Assembly: GCA_964610105.1 (NCBI GenBank)
Contig: CAZSUU010000003.1
Coordinates: forward strand, 18,417 to 82,416
DNA from: an uncultured Verrucomicrobiota bacterium
GTDB lineage: Bacteria > Verrucomicrobiota > Kiritimatiellia > PWTM01
Direction: 5' to 3'
Length of the DNA: 64,000 bases
In this document: in pieces, positions 23,252 through 60,257 of the stretch
How positions within the stretch are numbered: position 1 is the stretch's first letter
Layout: each line of letters starts with the position of its first letter
The notes under the pieces: model-generated
The model's input: the letters and a program-made list of their open reading frames with translations, nothing else
Databases searched by the model: none
What the model was told of the DNA's origin: nothing
Program-made: the position numbers and the translations under genes

Positions 23252-23330
23252 GGCGACCCGCGGTCCAATTCGAATGGAATTCGATCCGCAGTCCACACCG
23301 AGGACGCGGGCAGGATTGCCCGCGGTACGG
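23252..23330 (+). repeat. 3' hairpin element copy 1 (GCGGGC-AGGATT-GCCCGC with conserved 5' flank)
   Basis: Shares ggcgacccg...gtccaca.cga.gacgcgggcaggatKgcccgcgg with 47259-47325 and the hairpin core with 41876-41893; lies in a convergent intergenic region. Confidence 0.5.
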
Positions 23331-32814: not shown

Positions 32815-35800
32815 TCAACGCGGCCGGAACACCAGCCGCACCGCCCGCGGCGCGAACGGTTCGATGACGACCGTGTTCATGCCCGGCGTGAGGTGCTTCG
32901 TCACGTCCAGCCGGAACGGCCGGCCGATGAACCCGCCGGCGTACCGGCCGTTGATGCTCACGCGCGCGGCCTCTTCCGGCGCGATCCCGTCCATTTCCAC
33001 GAACACGCGCGTCCGCGCCGGATTCATGTCCGCGGGCAGCTCGCAACGCCCGACGAACGGGTCGCTGGCGACGGGGCTGGCGGTCAGGCGTCCTCGCCCC
33101 GCGCCGGCGGCGGCGAAACGGCCCCACGGGGCGCAGCCGTACGCGCCCACCTCCTTCGACGCGGGCCAGGCCTTGTCGTCGAAGTCCGGCCGGTTCCATC
33201 CGGGCTCTTCCCGCTCCGCCGCCTTCCACGTCGCGTCCAACGCGCACGCGAGCGGCGCGCCGCTTTCGAACGCGATTTCGATCCGGCCGATGAGGCCCGC
33301 GGGATTCGGTGTGTCCGCCATGTTCAGCGCCGCGAGGGCGAAGACGTTGGCGCCTTCCCCGATCAGCTTCGTCAGATCCAGCTTCGTCGGCGAGCGCCAG
33401 CCCTCCAGATCGTCGCTGCTGCGGCCGGCCTCCCTCCCGTTCACGAAGAGCGTGAACGCGTTGTCGCACGTGCCGATGAAGCGCGCCTGCCGGATCGCGC
33501 GGCCGGCCGGCACCGTGCACCCTCCGCGGAAGTAGCGCATGCCCGGCGGCACGCCCTGGGCCGCATCGCCGCGGGGGAACCAGATCCACCGGCAGCCGCT
33601 GAGCGCGGCGTCCTCGGCGGAATTCGGCGTCTCCGCCGGCGGCGCGCTCGGGATGATCAACTCCGGCGGCGTGGCGACGCGCTGGACGGCCACCGGTTCG
33701 CGCGCGGGCGGGCCGGCGGGAGGCAGACGCGCGGGCAGGACGCGCCGCTCCTCCTGGAAGAGCAGCACGACGCTCTCGGACGGCTCCAGCGTCAGGTCCA
33801 GCTCGACCGCGTTCGCGGCGATGCGTTTGTACGGCACGGCGGCGATCTCGTTCCGCATCGCGTCCCACGCCTCCGGCTCGCCGGCGGCCGCGATCCGGAA
33901 GCGGAAGCGCCGCGCGTCGCCCATGTGGTTCTGGTTGCAGACCAGGAACACGTCGCGACCGGACTTGACCCGGTGCAGGACGTGCAGCCATCCGCCGGTC
34001 TCGCCCTCGATCACCTCCAGCGCCGGGCGCACGCCGGCGTCCTTCGCGAACGCGCCCTGGATCTGCTCCACCGTCGGCCGGGCCGGCAGGAAGTACGAGC
34101 GTCCGCCCGCTGCGCTGGTCTTGCAGGCCGCCGTGCCGGGCGACGGGTTCCCCCAGACCGCGTCGCACAGGGCGGCAAGGTCGGCGGCGGTCTTCCCGAG
34201 CGTCGCGGACTTGCCGGGCAGGACGTCATAGCCGACCACGATGCCGCCCTTCTCGAAAAACTCCTTCGCCTTCGCCAGCGCGGGGTACGGGATGACCTCC
34301 GCGGGCGGCACGATCAGGATGCGGTAGCTCTCCTTGTGCAGCTTGAGCGCCCCGCCTTCGATGGCGGCCAGCTCCTCGAACGCGTCGTACGGCACCCAGT
34401 CGCAGTCGTAGAGCGCGTCGTCGAGCGTGTCCGTCAGCGCGTCGTTCCGCACGCATCGGCCCGCATGCATGCTCTGCCCCGGGAAGAGGAACGCGACCGG
34501 CGCCACGTGCCGCCCGCCCGACAGCAGCACGCTCAGACGGCTGGTGTAGTCGCAGTACACGCGGTGCAGCGGGTAGCGCGGCTCGAACCCGCCGTTGTAG
34601 AAGTAGGGCGGGCAGTCCGTGTCGTGCGGCGCGCGCGGGTTGAAGGAATGCGGAATCATGAAGTTCACCCCGCGGACCTGCATCTGGTCGGTCAGCCACT
34701 TGATCTGCGGGTACGTGAGGTCCTGGCCGTAGGCGCCGAAGATCTCGCACATCGCGATGTCGTCGGGCTTGTTGTAGACATGCGTGATGGAGCTGCCGAG
34801 CCTGGCCATCTGCCACAGGCCGGGCTTCCTCTCCCCGGGGTAGAACTGGCGGCAGACCAGGTCGATGCCGCCCATCCCGCAGTACTTCTGCAGCTGGAAC
34901 ATGTTCCCGGCGCAGAGCTGCCGGCTGAACAGATCGTTGCTGTGTTCCATGAAGTGGCCGATCGAAACAACCCGGTGTTCGCGGCACCACTTCGACATGC
35001 CGCCGTACATCGTGCGGCCCCACGCCTCGGCGAACGCGTCCGCGTACTGGTACCTTGCCGCGATCTGCTCCTCGCCCGCCAACCGGAACTTCCACGCCAC
35101 CAGCGCCTTCTTCCAGTCCACCTTGCGCTCGGCCAGCAGCGTCATCACGTCCGTCCCCCAGTCGCCCAGGGTCTCCGGCTCGTCAAAGAAATACCCCCGG
35201 ATGGTCCGGCCGAAGTCGTCCTTGAATCGGTCATAGTGCGGCTGGTAGACGGTCTTCAGGAACCACTCGACGCAGTCGGGGCTCGCGCCGTCGACGGCGA
35301 TCATCTTCTGCTGCATGCCCTTCGGGCCGGTGAGCTGCCACGTGAACTTCATGACCTTCCATCGGCCCGCGGGCGCGTCCCACGTCAGCGTGCCGTCCCT
35401 GATGTGGGGCGCGAGGTCCACCAGGCTGGCGCCGTCGACACCCGCTTCCGTCTCGCGCCCCGCCACCGCGCCGATGAACTCCCTGCCGTCGTAGCCCGGC
35501 TCGGTCAGCCGCTTCGGCCCCTCCACCGGCGTCGCGGCGGCCGCCATCGTCTTCGACCCGTACTCCGGCGGCACCTTGCCGCCGACCATCTGGCTCGGCC
35601 ACCATTTCTCGTCGAAGATCCACATCTGCAAATCCAGTTCCCTGGCCTTCTTCAGGCAGATGTCGAGATCGCGGTACCACCCTTCGCCCAGCCAGTCGTT
35701 GTGCGGGCGCGATTCGGCCGTGAACGCGCCGTTGCCGCTCTCCGCGACTCTGTCGAGATACGTCTCCAGCCGTTCCCGGCTCTCGTCGCCGTGCAGCCAG

Positions 35801-35955
35801 AACAGCGGCCCCGTCAGCCGCCTCGCCTCCATCGGCAGCTCGCGAAACCGGCGCTCGACCTCCTTCATATCCGGCTCGCCCCTCTCCGCCCCCGCGGGCG
35901 GGCCCGACATCGCCGCCAGCACCGTCAACCCTGCAGCCAGGGTGAAACGCTTCAT
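32815..35955 (-). CDS. Large secreted glycoside-hydrolase-like protein (1046 aa; GH106/GH2-like architecture, tentative)
   Basis: Start MKRFTLAAGLTVLAAMSG (ATG 35955, preceded by AGGGAG). The longer ORF to 36093 is read-through of the conserved upstream element. Confidence 0.7.
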   Translation of the reverse strand: MKRFTLAAGLTVLAAMSGPPAGAERGEPDMKEVERRFRELPMEARRLTGPLFWLHGDESRERLETYLDRVAESGNGAFTAESRPHNDWLGEGWYRDLDICLKKARELDLQMWIFDEKWWPSQMVGGKVPPEYGSKTMAAAATPVEGPKRLTEPGYDGREFIGAVAGRETEAGVDGASLVDLAPHIRDGTLTWDAPAGRWKVMKFTWQLTGPKGMQQKMIAVDGASPDCVEWFLKTVYQPHYDRFKDDFGRTIRGYFFDEPETLGDWGTDVMTLLAERKVDWKKALVAWKFRLAGEEQIAARYQYADAFAEAWGRTMYGGMSKWCREHRVVSIGHFMEHSNDLFSRQLCAGNMFQLQKYCGMGGIDLVCRQFYPGERKPGLWQMARLGSSITHVYNKPDDIAMCEIFGAYGQDLTYPQIKWLTDQMQVRGVNFMIPHSFNPRAPHDTDCPPYFYNGGFEPRYPLHRVYCDYTSRLSVLLSGGRHVAPVAFLFPGQSMHAGRCVRNDALTDTLDDALYDCDWVPYDAFEELAAIEGGALKLHKESYRILIVPPAEVIPYPALAKAKEFFEKGGIVVGYDVLPGKSATLGKTAADLAALCDAVWGNPSPGTAACKTSAAGGRSYFLPARPTVEQIQGAFAKDAGVRPALEVIEGETGGWLHVLHRVKSGRDVFLVCNQNHMGDARRFRFRIAAAGEPEAWDAMRNEIAAVPYKRIAANAVELDLTLEPSESVVLLFQEERRVLPARLPPAGPPAREPVAVQRVATPPELIIPSAPPAETPNSAEDAALSGCRWIWFPRGDAAQGVPPGMRYFRGGCTVPAGRAIRQARFIGTCDNAFTLFVNGREAGRSSDDLEGWRSPTKLDLTKLIGEGANVFALAALNMADTPNPAGLIGRIEIAFESGAPLACALDATWKAAEREEPGWNRPDFDDKAWPASKEVGAYGCAPWGRFAAAGAGRGRLTASPVASDPFVGRCELPADMNPARTRVFVEMDGIAPEEAARVSINGRYAGGFIGRPFRLDVTKHLTPGMNTVVIEPFAPRAVRLVFRPR

Positions 35956-35969
35956 GCTCTTCTCCCTAA

Positions 35970-36138
35970 GGCGGCGAGCCGCAACCCAACGGTCCTGGCC
36001 GCTCAATGCCCTCACTCCAGTCCGTCCGTTCCTTCGTGCAACCGCGCCGCCTTCCGAGATTGTTCCGCCACCCATTCCACGGAGGAACCTCACGGAGGAA
36101 GCATCACACGCAACTGCGCCTCATGTTTTGGCGGAACA
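35970..36138 (-). promoter_or_regulatory. Conserved ~170-nt upstream element, copy A (5' leader/promoter module of the GH gene)
   Basis: About 80% identical and colinear with 47994-48162 (core ~88%); ends 14 nt before the GH start codon. Contains tandem cacgga(g/a)(g/a)a motifs and ttgttccgcc...ggcggaacaa. Confidence 0.55.
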
Positions 36139-38545: not shown

Positions 38546-38637
38546 CCCCACCCCACAGGTTGCCCCCCTGCGCCTGTCCCCTGCGCCACCCGTCCGCGTG
38601 CCCCTCGGCCGCCTTCGGCGCATCGGCTAAATCAATA

Positions 38638-38649
38638 ATACGATCGTAT
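38638..38649. promoter_or_regulatory. AT-rich perfect palindrome ATACGATCGTAT (candidate operator), copy 1
   Basis: 12-bp perfect palindrome in the 152-bp divergent region between the esterase (-) and hypothetical (+) genes; same core as 40370-40387; TATACT -10-like hexamer 17 nt downstream of its left half. Confidence 0.45.
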
Positions 38650-38697
38650 CGCGGAACGGGTATACTTCTTTCGTCCGCTGCCCGCGGTGGCTGTGCC

Positions 38698-40167
38698 ATG
38701 GCCGGGTGTTCGATGAAGCCGATGAAGACCCACAGGAACAGGACGGCGTGCAAGGTGGTCCTGGCGGTCGTGCTGTGCATGGCGGTCGTCCTGCTCTTGA
38801 GCGCCATGCTCGCCCGTGTGTGCGTCAAACGCCTCGCCTCTCCGTGGCCGGCGCGGGTGGAAGGTGTGCGGCTCACGCCGTCCCGGCCCGTGCTTTCCAC
38901 GGCCGATCTGTCGCCCACCAACGCCTTCTTTCACCTGATCGCCATGACCAACCCGTTGCCGTCCACGTACCGGCGGATACTGGACGAGGAAGTCTGGATC
39001 TGGACGGCCTCCGGCGCGCAGGGTGCGCCCTATCCCGCCTTTGAAACCTGGCCGGTTTCCAACGTCGTCAACCTCGGCCATTGGACCACCGCTGCGAGCC
39101 TGGACTTCTCCCATGTCCCCAGCGTGCTCAGCATCACCGGAGCGATCCCGAACATCTCGGGCTTCGTGCAGATGGCCAAGTACCAGTCGATCTACGCCAG
39201 CATGCTCGCGACCCGGGGCCGGTGGTCAGAGGCCTGCCGGTCGTGGCAGGAGAACCTCCGGAATGCCTCTCACATCATGCGCGGCGGCGGCCTCATGTCG
39301 CACCTGGCCGGCCTCGCCGCTCTCCAGTGCACGCTGAAGAGCGTCAGGGACGCGGCCCTTCTGGACACCCTGCCCCCCGAGGCGGCGGAGCAGTTGGCCG
39401 CCGCCCTCGAGCGCTCCGAGTCGCATCTGGAGCCGCTGGCTGAGGTGTTCCGCGTCGAACTCCAGGTGCAATGGAGCACCCTCCGCGCCGTGTACGCCGA
39501 TCCCCATGCCTTTGGCGGTCCGGCGACGCAGTCGGTGTCACGCACTGCGTTCCGGGTGCACCGCATGCTCGGCAGCACCGAAGCCCGATCCCGCCGCCAC
39601 TTCGAGGCGTTCTTCTCGCAGATCATCGCCGCCTGCGAACCCCGGCCCGACTGGACGCGCATCCAACGCCTGGAGGCCGCCTTCGAGCATCCACGCCGTT
39701 ACCTGCTGGACGATCCGATCGGCGGAATCGTGGCGGTCCTGACGGTTCCGTCGACGCTCCGCGTGATTCGCAGGCAGATCGCCTGCGAAGCGGCCCTCCG
39801 AGGCACAGCGACGGTGGTGGCGCTTCGCCGATACCAGGTCGACCATCGGGGAACGGTCCCCTCCCGTCTGGCGGACTTGGTGCCCGCCTATCTCCCCGGG
39901 ATCCCTGCCGATCCGTTCACGGACGATGCGCGCCCGCTGCAATACATTCCCGGCAGCGAGGACTGGGTCATCTACAGCGTCGGGCCAAACCGGCGGGACG
40001 AGGGGGGAACGATCGACAGCGAGCTGTCGGGCGAGAAACCGGGGCAATGCGGCGACATGCTGTTCGGGTTGCGGTTCAAGCGCATCGACGTGGCCCACGC
40101 CGAGCATATCCTCGAGGTCTACAGGCGGGAATCCTCTGCCGCCATCGCCGCGCCATCCGCCCCATGA
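38698..40167 (+). CDS. Hypothetical membrane-anchored protein (~490 aa)
   Basis: N-terminal TM VVLAVVLCMAVVLLLSAMLA; start 38698, 38713 or 38722; no recognisable domain. Confidence 0.5.
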   Translation: MAGCSMKPMKTHRNRTACKVVLAVVLCMAVVLLLSAMLARVCVKRLASPWPARVEGVRLTPSRPVLSTADLSPTNAFFHLIAMTNPLPSTYRRILDEEVWIWTASGAQGAPYPAFETWPVSNVVNLGHWTTAASLDFSHVPSVLSITGAIPNISGFVQMAKYQSIYASMLATRGRWSEACRSWQENLRNASHIMRGGGLMSHLAGLAALQCTLKSVRDAALLDTLPPEAAEQLAAALERSESHLEPLAEVFRVELQVQWSTLRAVYADPHAFGGPATQSVSRTAFRVHRMLGSTEARSRRHFEAFFSQIIAACEPRPDWTRIQRLEAAFEHPRRYLLDDPIGGIVAVLTVPSTLRVIRRQIACEAALRGTATVVALRRYQVDHRGTVPSRLADLVPAYLPGIPADPFTDDARPLQYIPGSEDWVIYSVGPNRRDEGGTIDSELSGEKPGQCGDMLFGLRFKRIDVAHAEHILEVYRRESSAAIAAPSAP

Positions 40168-40369
40168 GAGCCCCCGCGCTTCCCGCCGTATTCCGCGTAC
40201 GCCTGCCCTGACGCACGTGCGGCCCCCGCGCGCACCGTGCACGGCCCTGTGCGGGATTTCGCGTGCATGCGCCGTCACTCCGTGCCATCACGGCTGCGGC
40301 GATCGCGGATCGCACGCGGCGATGAGCCGTCGCGCGCATCCGGCTCGTGGGGACGAATATACCGTTTTC

Positions 40370-40387
40370 ATGATACGATCGTATCAT
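40370..40387. promoter_or_regulatory. AT-rich perfect 18-bp palindrome ATGATACGATCGTATCAT (candidate operator), copy 2
   Basis: Perfect palindrome in an AT-rich patch about 107 nt upstream of the 40494 ATG; TATGTT hexamer 17 nt downstream of its ATACGA half. Confidence 0.5.
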
Positions 40388-40493
40388 CGATTTGGTATGT
40401 TCTCCGGCTGCCCGGACCTGGCCATTCCCGCGTCGTTGCGAGGGTGAAACGGCGTGCCTTTTCGCGGGGAAACGATAGACTGCGGCGCAGATC

Positions 40494-41813
40494 ATGAGAC
40501 TCACGGACATGTTCGCAGTCTGTTTCGCACTTGGGTGCCTTTCGTCGTTCGCCTCCGACTACGCCGTCGTGATCGACGCCCGGTCCGCCGCCGACCCCGG
40601 CTGGCGGGCGGTGGCGGAGGTGCTGGAGGCGAAGCACGGCGGGACGCGCGTGACGTACACCGGCGGCGTAGAGCAGGCGGGCGCGGAACTGAAGCGGCTC
40701 CGGCCGCGATTCGCATGCTTCGTGGCGCCGCCCGATCACGTGACGACGGAGTTCGTGGTGGCGGTACATGGCCTGACGCGGGCCCTGGATGACGATCCCT
40801 ACACCGACACGATCTGGGGCATCCTGACCGGTTACGACGCCTCCAATGCCCTGCGCATCGCGCGGCGTCGCGAACCCCTGACCGTCCGCCGCGTGCTCTC
40901 GGGGACCGCCTTCGCCCTGGAGTGCGTCGAAGAGGGGGTGTGGTACGACGAGCTGGAACAGGGCAAGGTCGTGCGCAAGACCAAGGGCGGACGGCCCGAG
41001 GAATCGCGGCACGCAGCCGACAGCACGGAATCCCTCGCGAAGGCGTTGAACGACGACTGGACCGATCTCCTGATCACCTCCGGCCATGCGACCGAGCGCG
41101 ACTGGCAGATCGGCTACCGGTTTCGCGGCGGATCGTTCAACTCCAAGGCCGGCGTGATGACCGCCCGCGATCCGGCCGGACGCACGTGGGAGGTCCATTC
41201 CTCCAACCCCAAGGTCTACCTCCCCGTCGGCAACTGCCTCATGGGCCACATCGACGGCCCGGACGCGATGGCCCTGGCCTGGATGAACTCGGCCGGCGTG
41301 ATGCAGATGATCGGCTACCTGAAGCCGACCTGGTTCGGCTACATGGGCTGGGGCCTGCTCGATTACTTCCTCGAACAGCCGGGCCGCTTCACCCTGGCCG
41401 AGGCGTTCTTCGCCAACCAGCAGGCCTTGATCCACGCCCTCCAGAAGGATCCGCAGTCGCGCGGCCTCCAGTTCGACCGCGACATGGTGGCGTTCTACGG
41501 CGATCCCGCGTGGGAGGCGCGCATGGCGCCGGGCGCATGCCGGTGGGAGCAATCCCTGACGGAAAAGGACGGCGTGTTCACCTTCGAGATGCGCCCGAAG
41601 GCGGGCGCCGACTCCTTCCGCGCCGTGAACGTCAATGGCTCCCAGCGCGGCAGCCGCCCGATCATCCACCTGCTGCCGCGGCGGATTGGACCCGCCACCG
41701 TGATCGAGGGCGCAGAGTTGTCGCCGGTGATCACGGAGAACTTCCTCCTCACCCCCCTCCCGGCCGGGAGTGAGCTCCGGCCGGTCTATCGCGTTGCGTT
41801 CCGGGCCGGCTGA
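40494..41813 (+). CDS. Secreted hypothetical protein (439 aa); possible His/Cys dyad hydrolase
   Basis: Signal peptide MRLTDMFAVCFALGCLSSFA. Hydrophobic strand followed by SGHATE, and VYLPVGNCLMGH, are reminiscent of clan-CD cysteine peptidases (weak). The overlapping minus-strand 522-aa ORF was rejected. Confidence 0.55.
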   Translation: MRLTDMFAVCFALGCLSSFASDYAVVIDARSAADPGWRAVAEVLEAKHGGTRVTYTGGVEQAGAELKRLRPRFACFVAPPDHVTTEFVVAVHGLTRALDDDPYTDTIWGILTGYDASNALRIARRREPLTVRRVLSGTAFALECVEEGVWYDELEQGKVVRKTKGGRPEESRHAADSTESLAKALNDDWTDLLITSGHATERDWQIGYRFRGGSFNSKAGVMTARDPAGRTWEVHSSNPKVYLPVGNCLMGHIDGPDAMALAWMNSAGVMQMIGYLKPTWFGYMGWGLLDYFLEQPGRFTLAEAFFANQQALIHALQKDPQSRGLQFDRDMVAFYGDPAWEARMAPGACRWEQSLTEKDGVFTFEMRPKAGADSFRAVNVNGSQRGSRPIIHLLPRRIGPATVIEGAELSPVITENFLLTPLPAGSELRPVYRVAFRAG

Positions 41814-45458: not shown

Positions 45459-45704
45459 ATGAAAACGGACGAGGTACGTGCGCGCATCGAAGACGAGGTA
45501 GCTGAATGGCTGCGCCAGGAAGCGGCAAAGCGCCGATGGTCCACCAGCATGATGGTGCGCCACATCATCTACGCGGCATACGATGCCGACAGCAAACGGG
45601 ACACAGAACAGTCGACGGCAGAGCCGGCAACCAAGCGTGCGGCACAAAGACGCGCAACTGCGATTCCGCCTACGGCAGTGCCTACTTCTTCCGTAAGTGC
45701 CTGA
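45459..45704 (+). CDS. Ribbon-helix-helix (CopG/Arc/MetJ-like) DNA-binding protein, RHH1
   Basis: VRARIEDEVAEWLRQEAAKRRWSTSMMVRHII fits the RHH beta-strand/helix pattern; SD GAAGGAG upstream. The C-terminal 17 codons run into the 77-bp repeat with non-native codons. Confidence 0.5.
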   Translation: MKTDEVRARIEDEVAEWLRQEAAKRRWSTSMMVRHIIYAAYDADSKRDTEQSTAEPATKRAAQRRATAIPPTAVPTSSVSA

Positions 45705-45729
45705 TGCCCTCAGCGCAATGAGAAGTGTC
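45653..45729 (+). repeat. 77-bp imperfect direct repeat, copy 1 (contains a duplicated bioD start, atgagaagtgtc)
   Basis: About 88% identical to 46400-46476; low GC (~50%) relative to the genome; internal agtgcct direct repeats. Confidence 0.6.
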
Positions 45730-46200: not shown

Positions 46201-46443
46201 ATGGCAACACGCACGTTCAGCGGCGGAAGATTCCTAACCACCGCCATCGTTGCGCCGGTCGCGGCCGTCGTGGTGGCCTGCCCGTTCTCGACCACCGACG
46301 TTGACTACGAGACGGACTATGGCCCCATCGGAAAGCCGTCGGAGTACACTGCCCGCAGACTCCGAGGAGAGGGCACCCGCACGGTGCTACGCAATGACAC
46401 GCAACTCCGATTGTGCCTACGACAATGCCTACTTTTCTCGTAA
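46201..46443 (+). CDS. Questionable 80-aa ORF, possibly a decayed duplicate; 3' end runs into repeat copy 2
   Basis: Reasonable codon usage for the first ~60 codons, rare codons inside the repeat; follows an anomalous AT-rich patch (46128-46165). Confidence 0.2.
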   Translation: MATRTFSGGRFLTTAIVAPVAAVVVACPFSTTDVDYETDYGPIGKPSEYTARRLRGEGTRTVLRNDTQLRLCLRQCLLFS

Positions 46444-46476
46444 GTGCCTGATGCCCTAAGCGCAATGAGAAGTGTC
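46400..46476 (+). repeat. 77-bp imperfect direct repeat, copy 2 (overlaps the bioD start codon)
   Basis: cgcaactccgattgtgcctacgacaatgcctacttttctcgtaagtgcctgatgccctaagcgcaatgagaagtgtc; the bioD ATG at 46465 lies inside it. Confidence 0.6.
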
Positions 46477-47258: not shown

Positions 47259-47325
47259 GGCGACCCGATTTCGACTGCGATCCTCAGTCCACAGCGAAGA
47301 CGCGGGCAGGATGGCCCGCGGCAGG
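47259..47325 (+). repeat. 3' hairpin element copy 3 (GCGGGC-AGGATG-GCCCGC with conserved 5' flank)
   Basis: ggcgacccg...cagtccaca.cgaagacgcgggcaggatggcccgcgg is colinear with copy 1; 78 nt downstream of the bioD stop, convergent with the ankyrin gene. Confidence 0.5.
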
Positions 47326-47405
47326 GAGTCCAGGAAAGCGGTGCCGCGCGCCATCCTGCGCGCGATCGGCAGGGCGAGCCGTCCCTGAAGAGCCGCCCCA
47401 GCGAT

Positions 47406-47978
47406 TCAGCGGTTGGTTCCCGACGGGGTGACCGCCCGACGGGCGAGGGCATCCCGCAGTTGCTTCTCGATGTCGGGACGGTTCATCCCCCGCACGAAAT
47501 CGAGCGGCGTATAGCCGGCCCTGTCGCGCGCGGTCGGATTCGCGCCCTGCCGAAGGAGGTAGTCGACCACCGTTCCGTAGCCGCGCCGCACGGCGTCGTG
47601 CAGAAGGGTGTTGCCTTCGTCGTCGACGATGTGATCGGGCTTCCACAGGCCCACCGACACCTGTTGCCGCACCTCCGCCAGGCGCTCCTCTTCCCGGCGC
47701 CTCGCCTCCTGCGCCGCGGCGAGGGCCGCGATGTTCTGCTGCACGACCGTCTCTTTCGCCGCCGCCGCCTCCTTGCCCATCGAGCTGGAGGGCGGGGCCA
47801 GTTTCCGGCGGAACCGATACGGGCTCGGTGTCGCCATCTTGCCCTTGGGCGCCGAAGTCGGTTTGAGCGCCGGCTGCGCGGCCGCCTTCTTGGCGTTCTC
47901 CTTGTCGGCGGCCTTCTTATCGGCGGCCGAGACGGCGCACGCCGCCGCCAGAAGCAGGATGACCCATCGCACACTCAT
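47406..47978 (-). CDS. Secreted ankyrin-repeat protein
   Basis: Signal peptide MSVRWVILLLAAACAVSA (ATG 47978); C-terminal ankyrin repeats GNTLLHDAVRRGYGTVVDYLLRQGANPTARDRAGYTPLDF. Confidence 0.7.
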   Translation of the reverse strand: MSVRWVILLLAAACAVSAADKKAADKENAKKAAAQPALKPTSAPKGKMATPSPYRFRRKLAPPSSSMGKEAAAAKETVVQQNIAALAAAQEARRREEERLAEVRQQVSVGLWKPDHIVDDEGNTLLHDAVRRGYGTVVDYLLRQGANPTARDRAGYTPLDFVRGMNRPDIEKQLRDALARRAVTPSGTNR

Positions 47979-47993
47979 GATCCACCGTCCCAC

Positions 47994-48162
47994 GGCGGCG
48001 AGCCGCAACCCCGCGGTCCTCGTCGCTCAGTGCGCCGACCGCGTTCGTTCCGTTCCTCCGTGCAACCGCGCCGCCTTCTGAGACTGTCCCGCCACCCTTT
48101 CCACGGAGAAACCTCACGGAAAACACGATGCGCATCTGCGTGCCATGTCTTCGCGGAACAAG
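47994..48162 (-). promoter_or_regulatory. Conserved ~170-nt upstream element, copy B (5' of the ankyrin gene)
   Basis: Colinear with 35970-36138. Its reading frame differs from the downstream gene, unlike copy A, which argues for a noncoding element. Confidence 0.55.
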
Positions 48163-48257
48163 GTAATGTACTCGTGGCGGGCGGTCTTGGCAACCGCCGC
48201 GCCCCCGCGAAGCGCAGGACGTCCGGCGATCCCGTCGTGAACGCGGAACCGCCCGCC

Positions 48258-50084
48258 TCAGGTCATCGCGCGACCGTGATACGCGCGGAAGGAGGTCGCG
48301 CCCTCGCGGCCGAGGAAGCGGGCTAGGATCCTGGGATCGAGGTCCAGCAGGTCGACCCAGATGAGCCCGTCGAGGACGTCGCTGAATTCGGGATCGACGT
48401 TGAAACCGAGCAGCTTCCCGCCGAGTTTGAGGTACTGCTTGAGCAGCACCGGGATCCCCTTGCGGTCGCGTTCGATCTCGCCGACCAGGTCCGACATGTC
48501 GTCCGTGGTCGTGATCGTCCGGCGGAAGATCTCCGGGTTCCACCGCTGACGCCGGACGCGGCCCGGCGGATGCCGCGGCTTGACGAACCTGGCCCAGTCC
48601 CGGCGGAAGTTGTTCGCGCGCATGAACTGCTCCATCATCTGGCGCGAGAGCGTGTTGTACTCGTTGTTGATGCTGACGGGGCCGAACAGGTGCCGGTAGC
48701 GCGGCTCCCGCACGACCATGCGCCCGATGCCCTTCCACAGCAGCAGGAGCGCCGAGTAGCTGCGCTGGTACTCCGGCCGCACGAACGACCGGCCGAGCTC
48801 GAGCGACGGTCCCATGTGGTCCAGGAGCGCCCGGCTGTACCGGAAGAGGGTGCTGGTGTACAGCCCCTTCTTGCCCTTGCGCGCCAGGATCTCGTCGCTG
48901 CGCCCGACCCGGTAGGCGCCCACCAGCTCACGCTTCGCCCGGTTCCAGAGGAGCAGATGATGGTAGTGGTGGTCGAAGCGGTCCAGGTCCGAGGCGCGGC
49001 CGGTGCCCTCGCCCGCCGCGCGAAAGGTCACCTCCCGAAGCCGTCCGATCTCGTGCAGCACATTGGGAATCTGGTCGGCCGCGGTGGCATAGACCACGAA
49101 ATCGTCGCTCTCGAGCAGCTGCGCCTCCGCGGGCAGCAGGGCGATGTCCTGCGCGATGGTGTCGGGATGCAGCGCGTCGGCGACGGGCGGCAACTCCGCG
49201 CGACGGGCCGGGCGCAGGGGCGGCGCCGGTACCCGGACGCCGTTCTGTCCGCGCCCCATGAGGATGTACGTGCGCAGGCGCAGGTACTCCATCATTTCGT
49301 CGTCCTGCTGAAGCTGCCGCAACCGCTCGAAGGGCACGACGCTGCCGATGTGGAAGCGCAGGGTGGTCCCCTGCTTGTTGATCAGCTCCCGGGGCAGCAT
49401 CGCGGTCCGCAGACGCGGGTGGATCAGCCCCATCAGCTGGAAGAGGGCGCCGTTGCGTCCTTCGACGAAGACCGGCTGGGCCGGCGCCTCGGTCATGCGG
49501 ATGATTCGCGCGATGGTGCCGCTCCACTTCGGGTCGGCCACGACGCCCTCGTGCAGCTTCAGGTGCGAGACCGTTCCCGAAGGAAACACCATCAGCATGT
49601 GCCCGTCCCGAATCCAGCGGATGCACTCCTTGATGGGCCGGACGTTGGAGGTCGGCGACCGCGGCAGGTCGAACGGATCCACGAAGAAACTGTGCGGCCC
49701 CAGTTCCGGCATGCGGCTGAGCAGGTAATTGGCCATCATCTTCACGTCCGGCCGGATTTCCTGCAGCAGGCGGAGCAGGACGATGCCCTCGATGCCGCCG
49801 AACGGGTGATTGGCCACCACCACCACGGGGCCCCCGCCGCAGATCCGCTGCCGGTCCTCCGGGCTCACGTCGTAGGAGATGCGCATGTGCTGCATCACCG
49901 CCGCCAGAAAGTCGCCGTTCCCGTCCGCGCCCCGGCTCGCGCACTGGTAGATGTGGTCGAGCTGGTCCAGCAGAAACAGGCGCTCGATCGAACCGCGCAT
50001 CAGGGAGAAGAGCTTCTGGCGGACGGGATCGCGGAAGCTCGCCCGCAGCTCGAAAACCGACCTGTTGTTTGCGTCAACGGCCAT
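48258..50084 (-). CDS. Bifunctional lysophospholipid O-acyltransferase / OlsB-like N-acyltransferase (OlsF-like, putative ornithine/aminolipid synthase)
   Basis: N-terminal LPLAT motifs (VVVANHPFGGIEG, VFPSGTVSH); C-terminal OlsB/hemolysin-like GNAT with DLDRFDHHYHHLLLWN. Confidence 0.65.
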   Translation of the reverse strand: MAVDANNRSVFELRASFRDPVRQKLFSLMRGSIERLFLLDQLDHIYQCASRGADGNGDFLAAVMQHMRISYDVSPEDRQRICGGGPVVVVANHPFGGIEGIVLLRLLQEIRPDVKMMANYLLSRMPELGPHSFFVDPFDLPRSPTSNVRPIKECIRWIRDGHMLMVFPSGTVSHLKLHEGVVADPKWSGTIARIIRMTEAPAQPVFVEGRNGALFQLMGLIHPRLRTAMLPRELINKQGTTLRFHIGSVVPFERLRQLQQDDEMMEYLRLRTYILMGRGQNGVRVPAPPLRPARRAELPPVADALHPDTIAQDIALLPAEAQLLESDDFVVYATAADQIPNVLHEIGRLREVTFRAAGEGTGRASDLDRFDHHYHHLLLWNRAKRELVGAYRVGRSDEILARKGKKGLYTSTLFRYSRALLDHMGPSLELGRSFVRPEYQRSYSALLLLWKGIGRMVVREPRYRHLFGPVSINNEYNTLSRQMMEQFMRANNFRRDWARFVKPRHPPGRVRRQRWNPEIFRRTITTTDDMSDLVGEIERDRKGIPVLLKQYLKLGGKLLGFNVDPEFSDVLDGLIWVDLLDLDPRILARFLGREGATSFRAYHGRAMT

Positions 50085-55716: not shown

Positions 55717-57414
55717 TTGACGGCAAACGACGATTACATTGTTGAGATCCTGGAGAGCGTCGGTCTGATCACCCGCCGGCAGGGGGAAGAGGCGCTCCAT
55801 TCCGCCCAGCAGGAAGACAAAGACGTGGTGGACATCCTCGTCCGCAACACGGGTCACACCAAGCTGGAGATCCTGAAGGCATTGGCCACGCAATTCGGGA
55901 TGGACACCGTCGACATCAAGTCCATGGCCATCGGGAAGGAGGTCACCGATCTCGTGCCGGCCAAGGTCGCGCGGCGGTACCGCATCGTCCCGTTCGAGCG
56001 CACGGAGACGGCGCTGCGGGTGGCGCTGAGCGACCCGTTCGACGTCGAGACGCTGGACAGCCTCCGCTACATCCTCAAGATGAACGTCGAAGGCGCGGTC
56101 GCCCTGCGCGAGGACATCGACGTCACGCTCGACCAGTACTATCCCCAGGCGAGCGAGGAAATGGCGACGATGCTGCACGACCTCAGCGAGCAGTCCGGCG
56201 CGCCGGGGTCCTCGCTGACGATCGAGGAGACGGTGACCGACGCGGACGAGCCGATCATCAAGCTCGTGAACCTGATCATCCTCGAGGCCTTCCGCCGGCG
56301 CTCCTCGGACATTCACCTGGAGCCGCTGGAGAAGAAATTCCGCGTCCGCTATCGCATTGACGGCGTGCTGCACGAGGTCGAGAGCCCGCCCCGCCGCCTG
56401 CAGTCGGCGATCATCAGCCGCGTGAAGATCATGGCGAACATGAGCATCGCGGAGAAGCGGGTGCCGCAGGACGGCCGCATCCAGATCAACGTGATGAACC
56501 GCGACCTGGACCTGCGCGTGTCGGTGCTGCCCGCCAACCACGGCGAGACGATCGTCATGCGTATTCTCGACAAGAGCAGCCTCATGCTGGGCCTGTCGCA
56601 GCTCGGTTTCTTCTCCGACGACCAGCAGACCTTCGAGCGGCTGATCGCGCTCTCCGACGGCATCCTCCTCGTGACCGGCCCCACCGGCTCCGGCAAGACG
56701 ACGACGCTGTACGCGTGCCTCAACCAGATCAACAAGCCCGACCGCAAGATCATCACGGTCGAGGACCCGGTCGAGTACGTGATGCCGGGCATCAACCAGG
56801 TCCAGGTCCACAGCGACATCGGCATGACCTTCGCCGCGGCGCTGCGATCGATCCTGCGCCAGGCGCCCAACATCATCATGATCGGCGAAATCCGCGACCT
56901 GGAGACGGCGGAGATCGCCGTCAACGCCTCCCTCACCGGCCACCTCGTCTTCAGCACCCTGCACACGAACGACGCGCCCAGCGCCGTCACCCGCCTGATC
57001 GACATCGGGGTCAAGCCGTTCCTCGTGGCCTCCTCGACCCGCGCGATCATGGCCCAGCGCCTGGTGCGCCGCATCTGCCCGAAGTGCAAGGAGCCCTACA
57101 AGCCGAACGAGAGCGAGCTGCACCTGCTCGGGCCGGCGACGGCGCACGTGGCCGCCGCGGAGCTGTTCAAGGGCAAGGGGTGTTCGGACTGCGCCAACAC
57201 CGGATACCGCGGCCGGTGCGGCATCTACGAGATCTTCGTGCTCGACGACATCGTGCGGCACATGATCAACGACCAGGTCGCCGCCGGCGAGCTCCGCGCC
57301 CAGGCGCGGCGGCTCGGCATGCGCACGTTGCGCGAGGACGGCCTGCGCAAGGTCGTGGCGGGCACGACCACGCTGGAAGAGGTCTTCCGCGTGACCATGG
57401 GGGACAAAGACTGA
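55717..57414 (+). CDS. pilB: Type IV pilus assembly / type II secretion ATPase (GspE/PilB family), paralog 1, TTG start
   Basis: Walker [10 protein letters not shown], Asp box, His box, tetracysteine CPKCK...CSDC, N-terminal GSPII_E_N-like domain. No in-frame ATG upstream of the first conserved block. Confidence 0.9.
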
Positions 57415-58511
57415 TGACACTGCGCGCGGCTGAGATCCAGATGGACGACCTGCTGGGGCTGGTCGTGGATGAAGGCGCCTCCGACCTGCATCTCTCGGTG
57501 GGCAATCCGCCGGTGCTCCGCATTCACGGCTCGCTTCAACCGCTCGATTCGGAGACCCTGGCGCCCGAAGACACCGAACGCCTGATGCGGGCGATCACCT
57601 CCGAGGAGAACATCCAGCGGACGCGCGAGCACGGCGGGTGCGACTTCGGGTTCGGCTTCGGCAAGCGGGCCCGTTTCCGCGTGAGCGTGTTCAAGCAGAA
57701 GGGGTACTTCGGCATCGTCCTCCGCCAGATCCCGTCGAAGATGCTGTCCCTCGAGGAGATCGGCCTCCCGGCGCAGATCAAGGAACTCCTGTACACGCCG
57801 CGCGGCATGGTGCTCGTCACCGGCCCCACCGGTTCGGGCAAGACCACGACCCTGGCGAGCATGATCAACATCATCAACGAGACCCGCGACTGTCACATCG
57901 TGACCGTCGAGGACCCGATCGAGTATTACCACGAGCACAAGAAGTCCATCGTCACGCAGCGCGAGATCAGTGTCGACGTCCCGTCCTTCAGCGAGGCGCT
58001 GCGCCGCGCCCTGCGCCAGGACCCGGACGTGGTGCTCGTCGGCGAAATGCGCGACCTCGAGACGATGGAGGCGGCGATCACGGCGGCGGAGACCGGCCAT
58101 CTCGTCTTCGCCACCCTGCACACGACGGGCGCCGCGCGCACCGTCGACCGCATCGTCGACGCGTTTCCCACGGACCAGCAGGAGCAGATCCGCACCCAGC
58201 TCTCCGCCACGCTCAAGGCCGTGATCTCGCAGCTGCTGCTCCCGCGCATCGACAAGAAGGGCCGCGTGGCGGTGTTCGAGGTCATGATCGTGACCCCGTC
58301 CATCCAGGCCCTGATCCGCGACAACAAGACCTTCCGCATCACCTCCGACATCCAGACGGGGGGGCGCCTGGGAATGTTCACCCTCGACGACCACCTCTTC
58401 AGCCTCTATCAGCAGGGCATCCTCGCCTACGAAGAGATGATCACGAAGGCGGAGGACAAGGACGTCCTTCTCCAGAAAATCGCCTCGCTCGACAAACAGC
58501 GGAAACGGTAG
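57414..58511 (+). CDS. pilT: Twitching-motility (retraction) ATPase PilT
   Basis: [30 protein letters not shown]-like ALIRDNK. ATG 57414 overlaps the pilB TGA; an alternative start is MDDLLGL at 57441. Confidence 0.9.
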
Positions 58512-58520
58512 GACCAGGTC

Positions 58521-60257
58521 ATGGCCGAGAATCCCAGTGAAATGCGGGCATCCGAAGCGAAGGACTATCTGCTGCAGCAGGTCCTGGCGGAGGGCATCAT
58601 CACGGCGGAAGTTGCCGGCGAGGTCATGGAGGAGCACAAGCGCACGGGCAACCCGGTGCGCGAGCTCCTGGTCGACATGGAGATCATGACCGAGGACGAG
58701 CTGCTGGACTTCATCGCCCGGCAGATGGGCACCTACGTGATCGACCTGGTCTCGCAGCCGCCCGACCGCGAGCTCGCCAAGCTGATCCCGGCCAGCGCGG
58801 TCCGCATGTACAACGTCGTCCCCGTCGAGGGCGAGGGCAACGCCATCACCCTGGCGACCGCCGACCTGCTCAGCCCGGAGGTCATCGACGAGCTGGTGTT
58901 CGTGCTCACGCGCGACATCAGCTACGTCATCGCGAAGTCGAGCGACATCCGGCACGTGATCAAGGACCTGTACGGCGACGTCAAGGACTCGGTCGGCGAC
59001 ATGCTCTCCCAGCTCGAGGCCGAGCTGCAGGAGGCGGGCGACATCCTGGACTACAACCGCGCCAAGGCGGGCGACGTGATCGACCTGGAGCAGATCGCCA
59101 ACCAGGCCCCCGTGGTCCGGTTCGTCAACCTGGTGCTGTACCAGGCCGTGCAGGACCGCGCCTCGGACATCCATTTCGAGCCGTTCGAGAACGAGTTCAA
59201 GATCCGGTACCGGGTGGACGGCGCCCTCTACGAGATGGCCCCCCCGCCGAAGCAGCTCGCCCTGCCGGTCATCTCCCGCGTGAAGGTCATTTCCGGCCTG
59301 AACATCGCGGAACGCCGCCTCCCGCAGGATGGCCGCATCAAGCTCACCATCGCGGGCCGGACGATCGACTTCCGCGTTTCCACCCTGCCCACCCAGTTCG
59401 GCGAGAGCGTGGTGCTGCGTATTCTCGACCAGAGCACGGTCCAGCTCGACCTGGAGAACATCGGCCTGCCGGACGACATCTACGAGACGCTGACGTTCGA
59501 CATCAGCAAACCCAACGGCATCATCGTGGTGACGGGCCCCACGGGGTCCGGGAAGACGACGACCCTCTATGCCGCGCTGAAACGGTTGAACACCATCCAG
59601 GACAAGCTGCTGACGGCGGAGGATCCCGTCGAGTACGACATCGAAGGGATCATGCAGATCCCGGTCCACGAGGGCATCGGCGTCACGTTCGCCCGCATCC
59701 TCCGGTCCTTCCTGCGCCAGGATCCCGACATCATCCTCGTCGGCGAGATCCGCGACAAGGAGACGGCCGAGATCGCCATCCAGGCCTCGCTCACCGGCCA
59801 CCTGGTGTTCAGCACCCTGCACACCAACGACGCGGCCGGCGCCATCACCCGCCTCATCGACATGGGCGTGGAGCCGTTCCTCATCGCGTCCACCATGGAG
59901 GCCATCCTCGGCCAGCGCCTCGTGCGGACCATCTGCCCCCACTGCAGGCAGTCCTACCAGCCCGAGAAGGACGTGCTGGACATGCTGAACCTCAAGCCCG
60001 ACCAGGTCGGCGATCGTCCCTTCCACTTCGGCGCCGGCTGCAAGCAGTGCAACGACACCGGCTACCGCGGCCGGCGGGGCATCTTCGAGTACCTGCGCAT
60101 GACCGAGCCCGTGCAGGCGCTCATCAACCAGCGCAAACCCACCCTGGTGATCCGCGACAAGGCGGTGGAGATGGGCATGCGCACCCTGCGCGAGGACGGC
60201 ATCCGCTGTATTCTGGACGGCTACACGACCGTCGAGGAAATTTTGAAGTATACTTAG
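58521..60257 (+). CDS. GspE/PilB-family secretion ATPase, paralog 2
   Basis: 578 aa, same motif set as paralog 1 ([15 protein letters not shown]...CKQCNDTGY); about 45% identity by eye. Confidence 0.9.
   Translation: MAENPSEMRASEAKDYLLQQVLAEGIITAEVAGEVMEEHKRTGNPVRELLVDMEIMTEDELLDFIARQMGTYVIDLVSQPPDRELAKLIPASAVRMYNVVPVEGEGNAITLATADLLSPEVIDELVFVLTRDISYVIAKSSDIRHVIKDLYGDVKDSVGDMLSQLEAELQEAGDILDYNRAKAGDVIDLEQIANQAPVVRFVNLVLYQAVQDRASDIHFEPFENEFKIRYRVDGALYEMAPPPKQLALPVISRVKVISGLNIAERRLPQDGRIKLTIAGRTIDFRVSTLPTQFGESVVLRILDQSTVQLDLENIGLPDDIYETLTFDISKPNGIIVVTGPTGSGKTTTLYAALKRLNTIQDKLLTAEDPVEYDIEGIMQIPVHEGIGVTFARILRSFLRQDPDIILVGEIRDKETAEIAIQASLTGHLVFSTLHTNDAAGAITRLIDMGVEPFLIASTMEAILGQRLVRTICPHCRQSYQPEKDVLDMLNLKPDQVGDRPFHFGAGCKQCNDTGYRGRRGIFEYLRMTEPVQALINQRKPTLVIRDKAVEMGMRTLREDGIRCILDGYTTVEEILKYT

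Follow-up and report, generated by a model that had tools for sequence, protein, structure and literature searches.

A repeated element upstream of genes for unrelated exported proteins in an uncultured Verrucomicrobiota bacterium, a putative mobile promoter

The analyzed stretch of DNA (64,000 nucleotides, hereafter the window) contains two copies of a non-coding element of about 170 nt, both of which end 15 nt ahead of the ATG of a minus-strand gene. A third and more diverged copy was retrieved from a public contig. All three readable copies point toward the start codon of a signal-peptide gene, at distances of 15, 15, and 74 nt, and the three downstream proteins are otherwise unrelated to each other. 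The explanation that we tentatively prefer, with somewhat less than even confidence, is that of a lineage-specific multi-copy cassette that was duplicated before unrelated exported-protein genes as a shared 5' regulatory region, comprising promoter-proximal DNA and a 5' leader. Such a cassette would act at the DNA level and would most likely be of the "putative mobile promoter" type. The two copies in the window, the genes downstream of them, and the open reading frame that runs through one of them are:

47994-48162, minus strand: copy B of the repeated upstream element, from its alignment with copy A (nhmmer E=3e-62; covariance model 219.7 bits)
35970-36138, minus strand: copy A of the repeated upstream element, 15 nt 5' of the GH106-like gene
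47406-47978, minus strand: ankyrin-repeat protein of 190 aa, 3' of copy B (Pfam Ank, Ank_5; GC3 0.86)
32815-35955, minus strand: GH106-like glycoside hydrolase of 1046 aa, 3' of copy A (Pfam PF17132)
47917-48738, minus strand: spurious ORF through copy B and, in another frame, the 3' end of the acyltransferase gene (GC by codon position 0.85/0.64/0.51)

An initial annotation had described 47994-48162 as the second copy of a conserved element of ~170 nt, and alignment on the minus strand (48162->47994 against 36138->35970) bore this out with ~81% identity over 170 columns. Its coordinates and its 16-nt offset were also correct: ggcggcgagccgcaacc begins at 47994 on the plus strand, and 15 nt separate copy B from the minus-strand ATG of the ankyrin gene at 47978. 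Differences between copies A and B amounted to 31 substitutions (18 transitions and 13 transversions) plus one 2-nt indel, and the substitutions were strongly clustered rather than uniform. Specifically, the copies were ~92% identical outside two variable islands, and a central core of 72 nt, located at -141..-70 relative to the ATG, reached 91.7% identity (blastn E=2e-22). The window has a G+C content of 67.7%. The similarity goes beyond GC-rich low complexity, as had been claimed, since both of the AT-containing blocks named in support of it can be aligned (ccacggag[g/a]aacctcacgga and tgttccgc). The 5' border of the similarity is abrupt, at TTGTTCC, and the 3' border is sharp, just ahead of a Shine-Dalgarno-like GGGA, where the element ends in GGGTTGCGGCTCGCCGCC. 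In copy B, weak similarity extends as far as the GGGA at 47988, and the alignment revealed none beyond the ATG. When the 64-kb window was searched with a profile built from the A/B pair, two places only were recovered (nhmmer E about 1e-62; next best E>0.05). A covariance-model search of the window again returned only A and B, and the 19-mer core was found in it twice versus 0.1 expected by chance.

Conservation within the element forms a mosaic, in which two modules of near-invariant blocks are interspersed with the two variable islands:

48099-48162, minus strand: module 1 of copy B, with TTGTTCCGCG, a variable island, and the tandem 13-bp repeats TTTTCCGTGAGGT / TTCTCCGTGGAAA
about 36075-36138, minus strand: module 1 of copy A, the equivalent of module 1 of copy B
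47994-48098, minus strand: module 2 of copy B, with GGGTGGCGGGACAGTCTCAGAAGGCGGCGCGGTTGCACGGAGGAACGGA, a variable island, and GAGCG..AGGACCG..GGGTTGCGGCTCGCCGCC, the blocks being common to the three copies

Module 1 (~65 nt) is made up of TTG(T/C)TCCGC, a variable island, and the tandem CCTCCG(T/C)GAGGTT / CCTCCGTGG(AA/GG), direct repeats with a spacing of 13 nt. Module 2 (~105 nt) opens with GGG(T/C)GGCGG.AC..TCTC.GAAGGCGGCGCGGTTG(C/T)ACG and continues after the second variable island with GAGCG..CAGG(A/G)CCG..GGGTTGCGG(C/TT)TCGCCGCC. The element also contains an internal inverted repeat of 10-13 bp (TTGTTCCGCC/GGCGGAACAA), which is perfect in copy A, and the further internal symmetries AAGGCGGCG/CGCCGCCTT and GTTCCTCCGTG/CACGRAGGAAC. 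Its sense (minus) strand is G-rich (38-41% G), and GGA occurs 6-12 times per copy, a CsrA-type enrichment that represents an excess of about 1.5-fold given this G content. No intrinsic terminator was predicted around either copy on either strand. A short upstream ORF starting from the conserved ACATG (MRRSCV* versus MARRCASCFP*) was rejected because neither its frame nor its length is conserved and the ATG is absent in copy C.

Real genes were chosen on the basis of GC at the third codon position and Pfam. Copy B was confirmed to lie directly 5' of a secreted ankyrin gene, as initially annotated: Pfam identified ankyrin repeats in the protein, and its N-terminus, MSVRWVILLLAAACAVSA, is signal-peptide-like by inspection. 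This exact protein was called on 11 public contigs. The N-terminus of the GH106-like hydrolase, MKRFTLAAGLTVLAAMSGPPAGA, is signal-peptide-like by inspection as well, and public gene calls start this protein at the same ATG (P0001). According to Pfam, the protein 3' of copy A (GH106) is unrelated to that 3' of copy B (ankyrin). On the 5' side, copy B is preceded by the gene of a bifunctional acyltransferase, which stops at 48258, and copy A by a 460-nt gap followed by a divergent ORF. The element itself is non-coding. ORF 47917-48738, which includes ...SVRFLRGKGGGTVSEGGAVARRNG..., is regarded as non-coding because its GC by codon position departs from that of the real neighbor genes (0.66-0.70/0.42-0.51/0.86-0.94). 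The 46-codon upstream extension of the hydrolase ORF has flat values (0.65/0.65/0.63), as opposed to about 0.67/0.47/0.90 in real genes. Both are artefacts, i.e., open frames that run through the element, and the earlier proposals that copy B explains the false minus-strand ORF and that the N-terminal extension of the GH gene is false hold on these codon-position values, the latter also on the public gene calls at the ATG. The remaining window is ordinary chromosome, with genes for IleRS, MutY, PGI, AHAS, GlgC, and V-ATPase and a type II/IV secretion-like cluster. We also observed a GC-rich hairpin, GGCGGTTGCCAAGACCGCC (48176-48260, minus strand), in the space that separates the acyltransferase stop from copy B. 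Its loop includes a -35-like TTGCCA; in Rfam this region had a chance-level likeness to the Caulobacter sRNA CC1840 (16 bits, E=8.9).

Copy C was reached through the open frame -0 of the element, which was translated to yield two pseudo-peptides that were queried against 1.8 billion representative proteins. This search provided one true match, P0242, a spurious ORF of 58 aa (E=2.5e-6). The second match, P0241, was discarded as a false one to a repetitive protein, and the frame -1 pseudo-peptide of the element had no match in the protein database. P0242 sits on a Logan contig of 1951 nt from the same run series (L075), on which copy C is split between 1493-1562 (E=7e-12) and 1660-1771 (E=6e-18). 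The two parts are separated by an insertion of ~97 nt (1563-1659) that lies between module 1 and module 2 and has short repeats of its own (GCCGTCGAAATCGA / GCCGTCGGGAGCGA) as well as inverted repeats (TCGCCGTCG / CGACGGAGA). With identities of 79% to A and 70% to B, copy C is the more diverged copy, and it ends 74 nt 5' of a gene whose product starts with the signal-peptide-like MISNGRSVMVAVVLLGSGACDIRAGEVIISEIMYHPP; this third exported protein is known from its first 37 residues alone. The contig may come from a related or different organism rather than from the same genome, because its methyltransferase gene has a GC3 of 0.76 versus 0.82-0.95 in the window.

Outside these three loci, the searches pointed to a narrow distribution of the element. 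Rfam 15 produced no matches at gathering thresholds across the whole window, and only chance-level matches around either copy at E<=10. The 19-mer AAGGCGGCGCGGTTGCACG had 17 matches among 185,579 genomes (one per species) and GCGGTTGCACGRAGGAACGG had 10 matches in the JGI metagenomes, none of which were similar beyond 20-25 nt, so that all of them were ascribed to chance. Of two scans of viral contigs, one was empty and the other gave a single match without similarity beyond the exact pattern, and BLAST against plasmids and phages gave no match. Related organisms were represented by about 155 kb of DNA, namely the neighborhoods of orthologues of the GH106 gene (71-74% amino-acid identity) and of the acyltransferase gene (65-68%), and no copy was detected there; both genes have a different synteny in these relatives. 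About 10 kb more of the same genome, obtained from public contigs that reach past the window edges, contained no copy either. The best named match of the acyltransferase derived from Kiritimatiellae (63%), and those of the hydrolase from Sumerlaeota and Planctomycetota.

Many runs of a single study (ERR45xxxxx, Logan assemblies) contain the same organism, and in many of these samples its public short-read contigs break inside the element. Specifically, every ankyrin-gene contig begins 93 nt 5' of the ATG, at GCGCGGTTGCACGG, and the hydrolase contigs begin 38 nt 5' of their ATG, at ACCGTTGGGTTGCGGCTCGCCGCCTTAGGG. The contigs with the upstream acyltransferase end at ...GGTTGCACGG in nine of the ten listed, the tenth being 4 nt longer. 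At the copy-B break, the exact match between A and B is of 20 nt only. Since these de Bruijn assemblies break at k=31 while A and B share 20 nt, this suggests that further near-identical copies exist, which would have stretches of 30-46 nt in common with B and with A. Such assembly breaks are not specific to the element, because another break point of the contigs lies near 59802-59815, within a tandem array of three T2SSE-type ATPase paralogues, of which it affects the third (direct repeats at 56654-56953, 58010-58160, and 59512-59811).

Other repeats were also observed in the window, which marks the genome as repeat-prone. A second intergenic family is represented at 23277-23330 and 47273-47326 (85% identical, about 110 nt when extended) and includes the hairpin GCGGGCA-ATCC-TGCCCGC, which is terminator-like but without a T run. 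Its members are located roughly 80-180 nt 3' of the stops of the minus-strand Laminin_G_3 and ankyrin genes. The ankyrin gene therefore has a repeat on either side, 47273-47326 downstream and copy B upstream. A direct repeat of 93 nt, 85% identical between 45637-45729 and 46384-46476, brackets a stretch of 55-60% G+C with small ORFs, one of which (45459-45704) starts with MKTDEVRARIEDEVAEWLRQEAAKRRW; the repeat at 46384-46476 extends over the start of a dethiobiotin-synthase-like gene (AAA_26). The bracketed stretch could be a small element that became integrated, the repeats being its duplicated attachment sites. Finally, the perfect 12-bp palindrome ATACGATCGTAT is present twice, at 38638-38649 and 40373-40384 (0.01 expected), each time inside a member of a 36-nt, AT-richer inverted-repeat pair (38629-38664 / 40358-40393). 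One palindrome is at or near the start of the plus-strand ORF 38560-40167 and the other is about 100 nt 5' of the plus-strand ORF 40494-41813, neither ORF having a Pfam match. This pair looks like a shared operator for a dimeric regulator.

Candidate promoters were found both inside copies A and B and next to copy B. Sigma-54 promoters follow the -24/-12 consensus TGGCAC-N5-TTGCW.

48061-48075, minus strand: GGCGGCGCGGTTGCA, located within the longest invariant block of copy B and matching the sigma-54 -24/-12 core (GG-N10-GC, TTGCA)
36037-36051, minus strand: the sigma-54-like core of copy A, a twin with the same match
48165-48193, minus strand: sigma-70-like TTGCCA-17-TACATT from a consensus scan (one found, 0.0 expected), ending 3 nt 5' of copy B

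The longest invariant block of the element reads aaGGCggcgcggTTGCAcg and combines the GG-N10-GC spacing with TTGCA. At the candidate sigma-54 core the sequence of copies A and B is aGGCggcgcggTTGCA, whereas copy C has TTGT at -12, and the -24 half (AGGCGG) agrees poorly with TGGCAC. The pattern GGC-N7-TTGCW occurs only twice on both strands of the window, in A and in B, against 3.7 occurrences expected by chance. For a given stretch of 185 nt its chance probability is roughly 0.5-1%, a value uncorrected for the additional scans for sigma-70 and ECF patterns. The candidate site is oriented toward the gene and the predicted start falls near 48050 in copy B and 36026 in copy A, which would leave a 5' UTR of ~72 nt; conservation holds to this predicted start site, and the second variable island begins immediately after it. 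Neither rpoN nor enhancer-binding proteins were found among the scanned ORFs of the window. No equivalent of the sigma-70-like promoter was found near copy A, and an ECF-sigma reading with GGAAC as the -35 was rejected, as the AAC varies among the three copies (AAC/GAC/CAC). On its own, an internal start from a sigma-54-type core is rather doubtful, and it is the weakest step of the mechanism described next.

According to the mechanism that we propose for the cassette, its conserved blocks would be protein-binding DNA. Module 1 and the beginning of module 2, which carry the CTCCGTG repeats in tandem and the inverted repeat TTGTTCCGCC/GGCGGAACAA, would constitute an activator-binding region. 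In the likeliest version, transcription would start inside the element from the sigma-54-type GG-N10-GC/TTGCA core, about 85-97 nt ahead of the ATG, and the last ~70 nt would provide a common 5' UTR that ends in GGGTTGCGGCTCGCCGCC beside the ribosome-binding site. The downstream genes would in this way come under a single regulator, and their co-regulation is plausible. Because copy C tolerates an insertion between the modules, a distance-flexible enhancer/promoter fits better than a compact RNA fold. Two further observations run counter to this proposal. The sigma-70-like promoter next to copy B would turn the whole element into a transcribed leader, and several of the A/B differences within stems are G-U-compatible on the minus strand only, which hints at RNA.

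These two observations lead to the first alternative, namely that transcription covers the whole element and yields a structured 5'-UTR RNA, either riboswitch-like or a leader that binds a protein or an sRNA, with two hairpin domains. Domain 1 would be closed by UUGUUCCGCC/GGCGGAACAA and domain 2 by AAGGCGGCG.GGUUGCA/UGCGGCU.CGCCGCCUU, and an alternative pairing of GUUCCUCCGUG with CACGRAGGAAC would control the translation of the exported-protein mRNAs. The location is suitable, as the sigma-70-like promoter stops 3 nt 5' of copy B and the end of the element adjoins the ribosome-binding site, but this site is not consistently masked in the predicted folds and no terminator was predicted. The two variable islands map to the tips of the predicted hairpins, and two mutually exclusive folds have similar energies. 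In the closing helix of domain 1, copies A and B differ only by changes that are G-U-compatible on the minus strand, yet the same helix has three internal mismatches in copy C, where the 97-nt insertion also falls within domain 1. All changes in the main stem of domain 2 are likewise G-U-compatible on the minus strand across the three copies. Against this, none of the 48 predicted pairs was changed on both sides and covariation was no better than in shuffles in the three-sequence alignment. Threading of A and B, each on the minimum-energy structure of the other, preserved no more pairs than a random placement of the substitutions (P=0.51 and 0.49), and threading of copy C on the A/B consensus structure gave P=0.74. 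Compared with shuffles, the fold of domain 1 is exceptionally good in copy A (z=-3.9), but the value for domain 1 of copy B is z=-0.95, those of the whole element are not unusual (-1.3 and -1.5), and copy C folds worse than shuffles (z=+1.3). There is no Rfam match, and the element is absent from the ~155 kb of relatives' loci. An RNA structure is not supported by the three copies, which offer no positive evidence of one, and we consider a structured leader unlikely.

The element could also be an intergenic repeat of selfish or neutral nature (MITE-, REP-, or ERIC-like) that has spread in this genome, and its place before gene starts would then be incidental or weakly consequential. On the one hand, it is confined to a single lineage, multi-copy, and able to break assemblies, it has internal inverted repeats, other short intergenic repeat families exist in the window, and copy C has an insertion and a different distance to its gene. 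On the other hand, the two ends of the element are not complementary, that is, it has no terminal inverted repeats. The presence of a target-site duplication was assessed from the similarity of the upstream flank to the 3' end of the element, and compared with genomic controls no significant flanking direct repeat was detected (P=0.04, 0.11, and 0.12). Furthermore, all three copies have the same orientation to the start codon, two of them at exactly 15 nt, all three genes encode exported proteins, and the substitutions are clustered. We consider a repeat of this kind unlikely.

A bolder interpretation is that the element is the cis signature of an undescribed exported-protein regulon in a Kiritimatiellota-like lineage, based on either a new class of leader RNA, with a structure that three diverged copies would be too few to reveal, or a dedicated sigma-54/activator circuit that spreads when its entire enhancer-promoter-leader cassette is copied ahead of further genes for secreted proteins; we regard this as unlikely. 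An independent small RNA gene, or a plus-strand antisense transcript, that is merely beside these genes is very improbable: the size of ~170-185 nt and the G-rich minus strand (38-41% G) would fit, but neither strand has a terminator, Rfam at E<=10 returned no real match, the plus strand has no consistent relation to the neighbor genes and in copy B folds no better than shuffles (z=+0.17), and conservation reaches the ribosome-binding site of the downstream gene. Other classes were rejected outright. The ends of the element have no RYYYAAC ... GTTRRRY core sites of an integron attC, an integron cassette array disagrees with the 12 kb and the housekeeping genes (PGI and others) that lie between A and B, and retron, 6S RNA, and tmRNA were ruled out by sequence reading and Rfam.

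If functional, the duplicated cassette would be a case of regulatory rewiring through promoter/leader duplication in a poorly studied uncultured lineage of the PVC group, and the glycoside hydrolase, the ankyrin-repeat protein, and the third exported protein would be a candidate co-regulated secreted set. In practice, the element gives rise to false ORFs, false N-terminal extensions, and broken short-read assemblies. On present evidence, it is an unremarkable case of a known phenomenon and involves no new mechanism.

Among known systems, transcribed repeats such as ERIC, Correia, and REPIN sequences resemble the element in being short, multi-copy, and lineage-specific intergenic repeats, some of which carry promoters or affect neighbor genes. 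Unlike the element, they have terminal inverted repeats or paired palindromic units and occur in both orientations; the element lacks both terminal inverted repeats and target-site duplications, and a single orientation relative to the downstream gene is common to its three known copies. Riboswitches and protein-binding leaders share with it the 5' position, the conserved blocks, the variable hairpin tips, and the possibility of alternative pairings, but the element is devoid of covariation, occurs in one lineage only, loses the predicted helices in copy C, and belongs to no Rfam family. The comparison with sigma-54 promoters points to only a partial match. The likeness consists of the GG-N10-GC of A and B, the TTGCA at -12 in the right orientation and within the most conserved block, the repeats upstream of it, and the acceptance by copy C of ~97 nt between the upstream module and the core. 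The differences are the -24 half (AGGCGG versus TGGCAC), the TTGT at -12 in copy C, and upstream blocks that are nearer to the core than typical enhancer sites.

The closest likeness is to putative mobile promoters (PMPs), which are defined by an identity of 80% or more across 50 nt or more within -150..-50, ahead of genes of one genome that are not homologous to each other (PMC3575422, a commentary on the work of Matus-Garcia, Nijveen & van Passel 2012). More than 4000 families of PMPs have been reported, and riboswitches or insertion sequences account for a few of them (PMC3575422). In the case of copies A and B, the identity amounts to 91.7% over 72 nt at -141..-70, and the coding sequences that follow them are non-paralogous (GH106 versus ankyrin). 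As with PMPs, the element has no match to known insertion sequences or RNA families. PMPs are an operational class and not a mechanism, and the element differs in that its similarity spans about -185 to -15, which includes the leader up to the ribosome-binding site, and in that all of its known copies precede exported-protein genes. The A/B pair falls within the operational definition of a PMP, and this is where it would best be filed, with its promoter activity regarded as putative.
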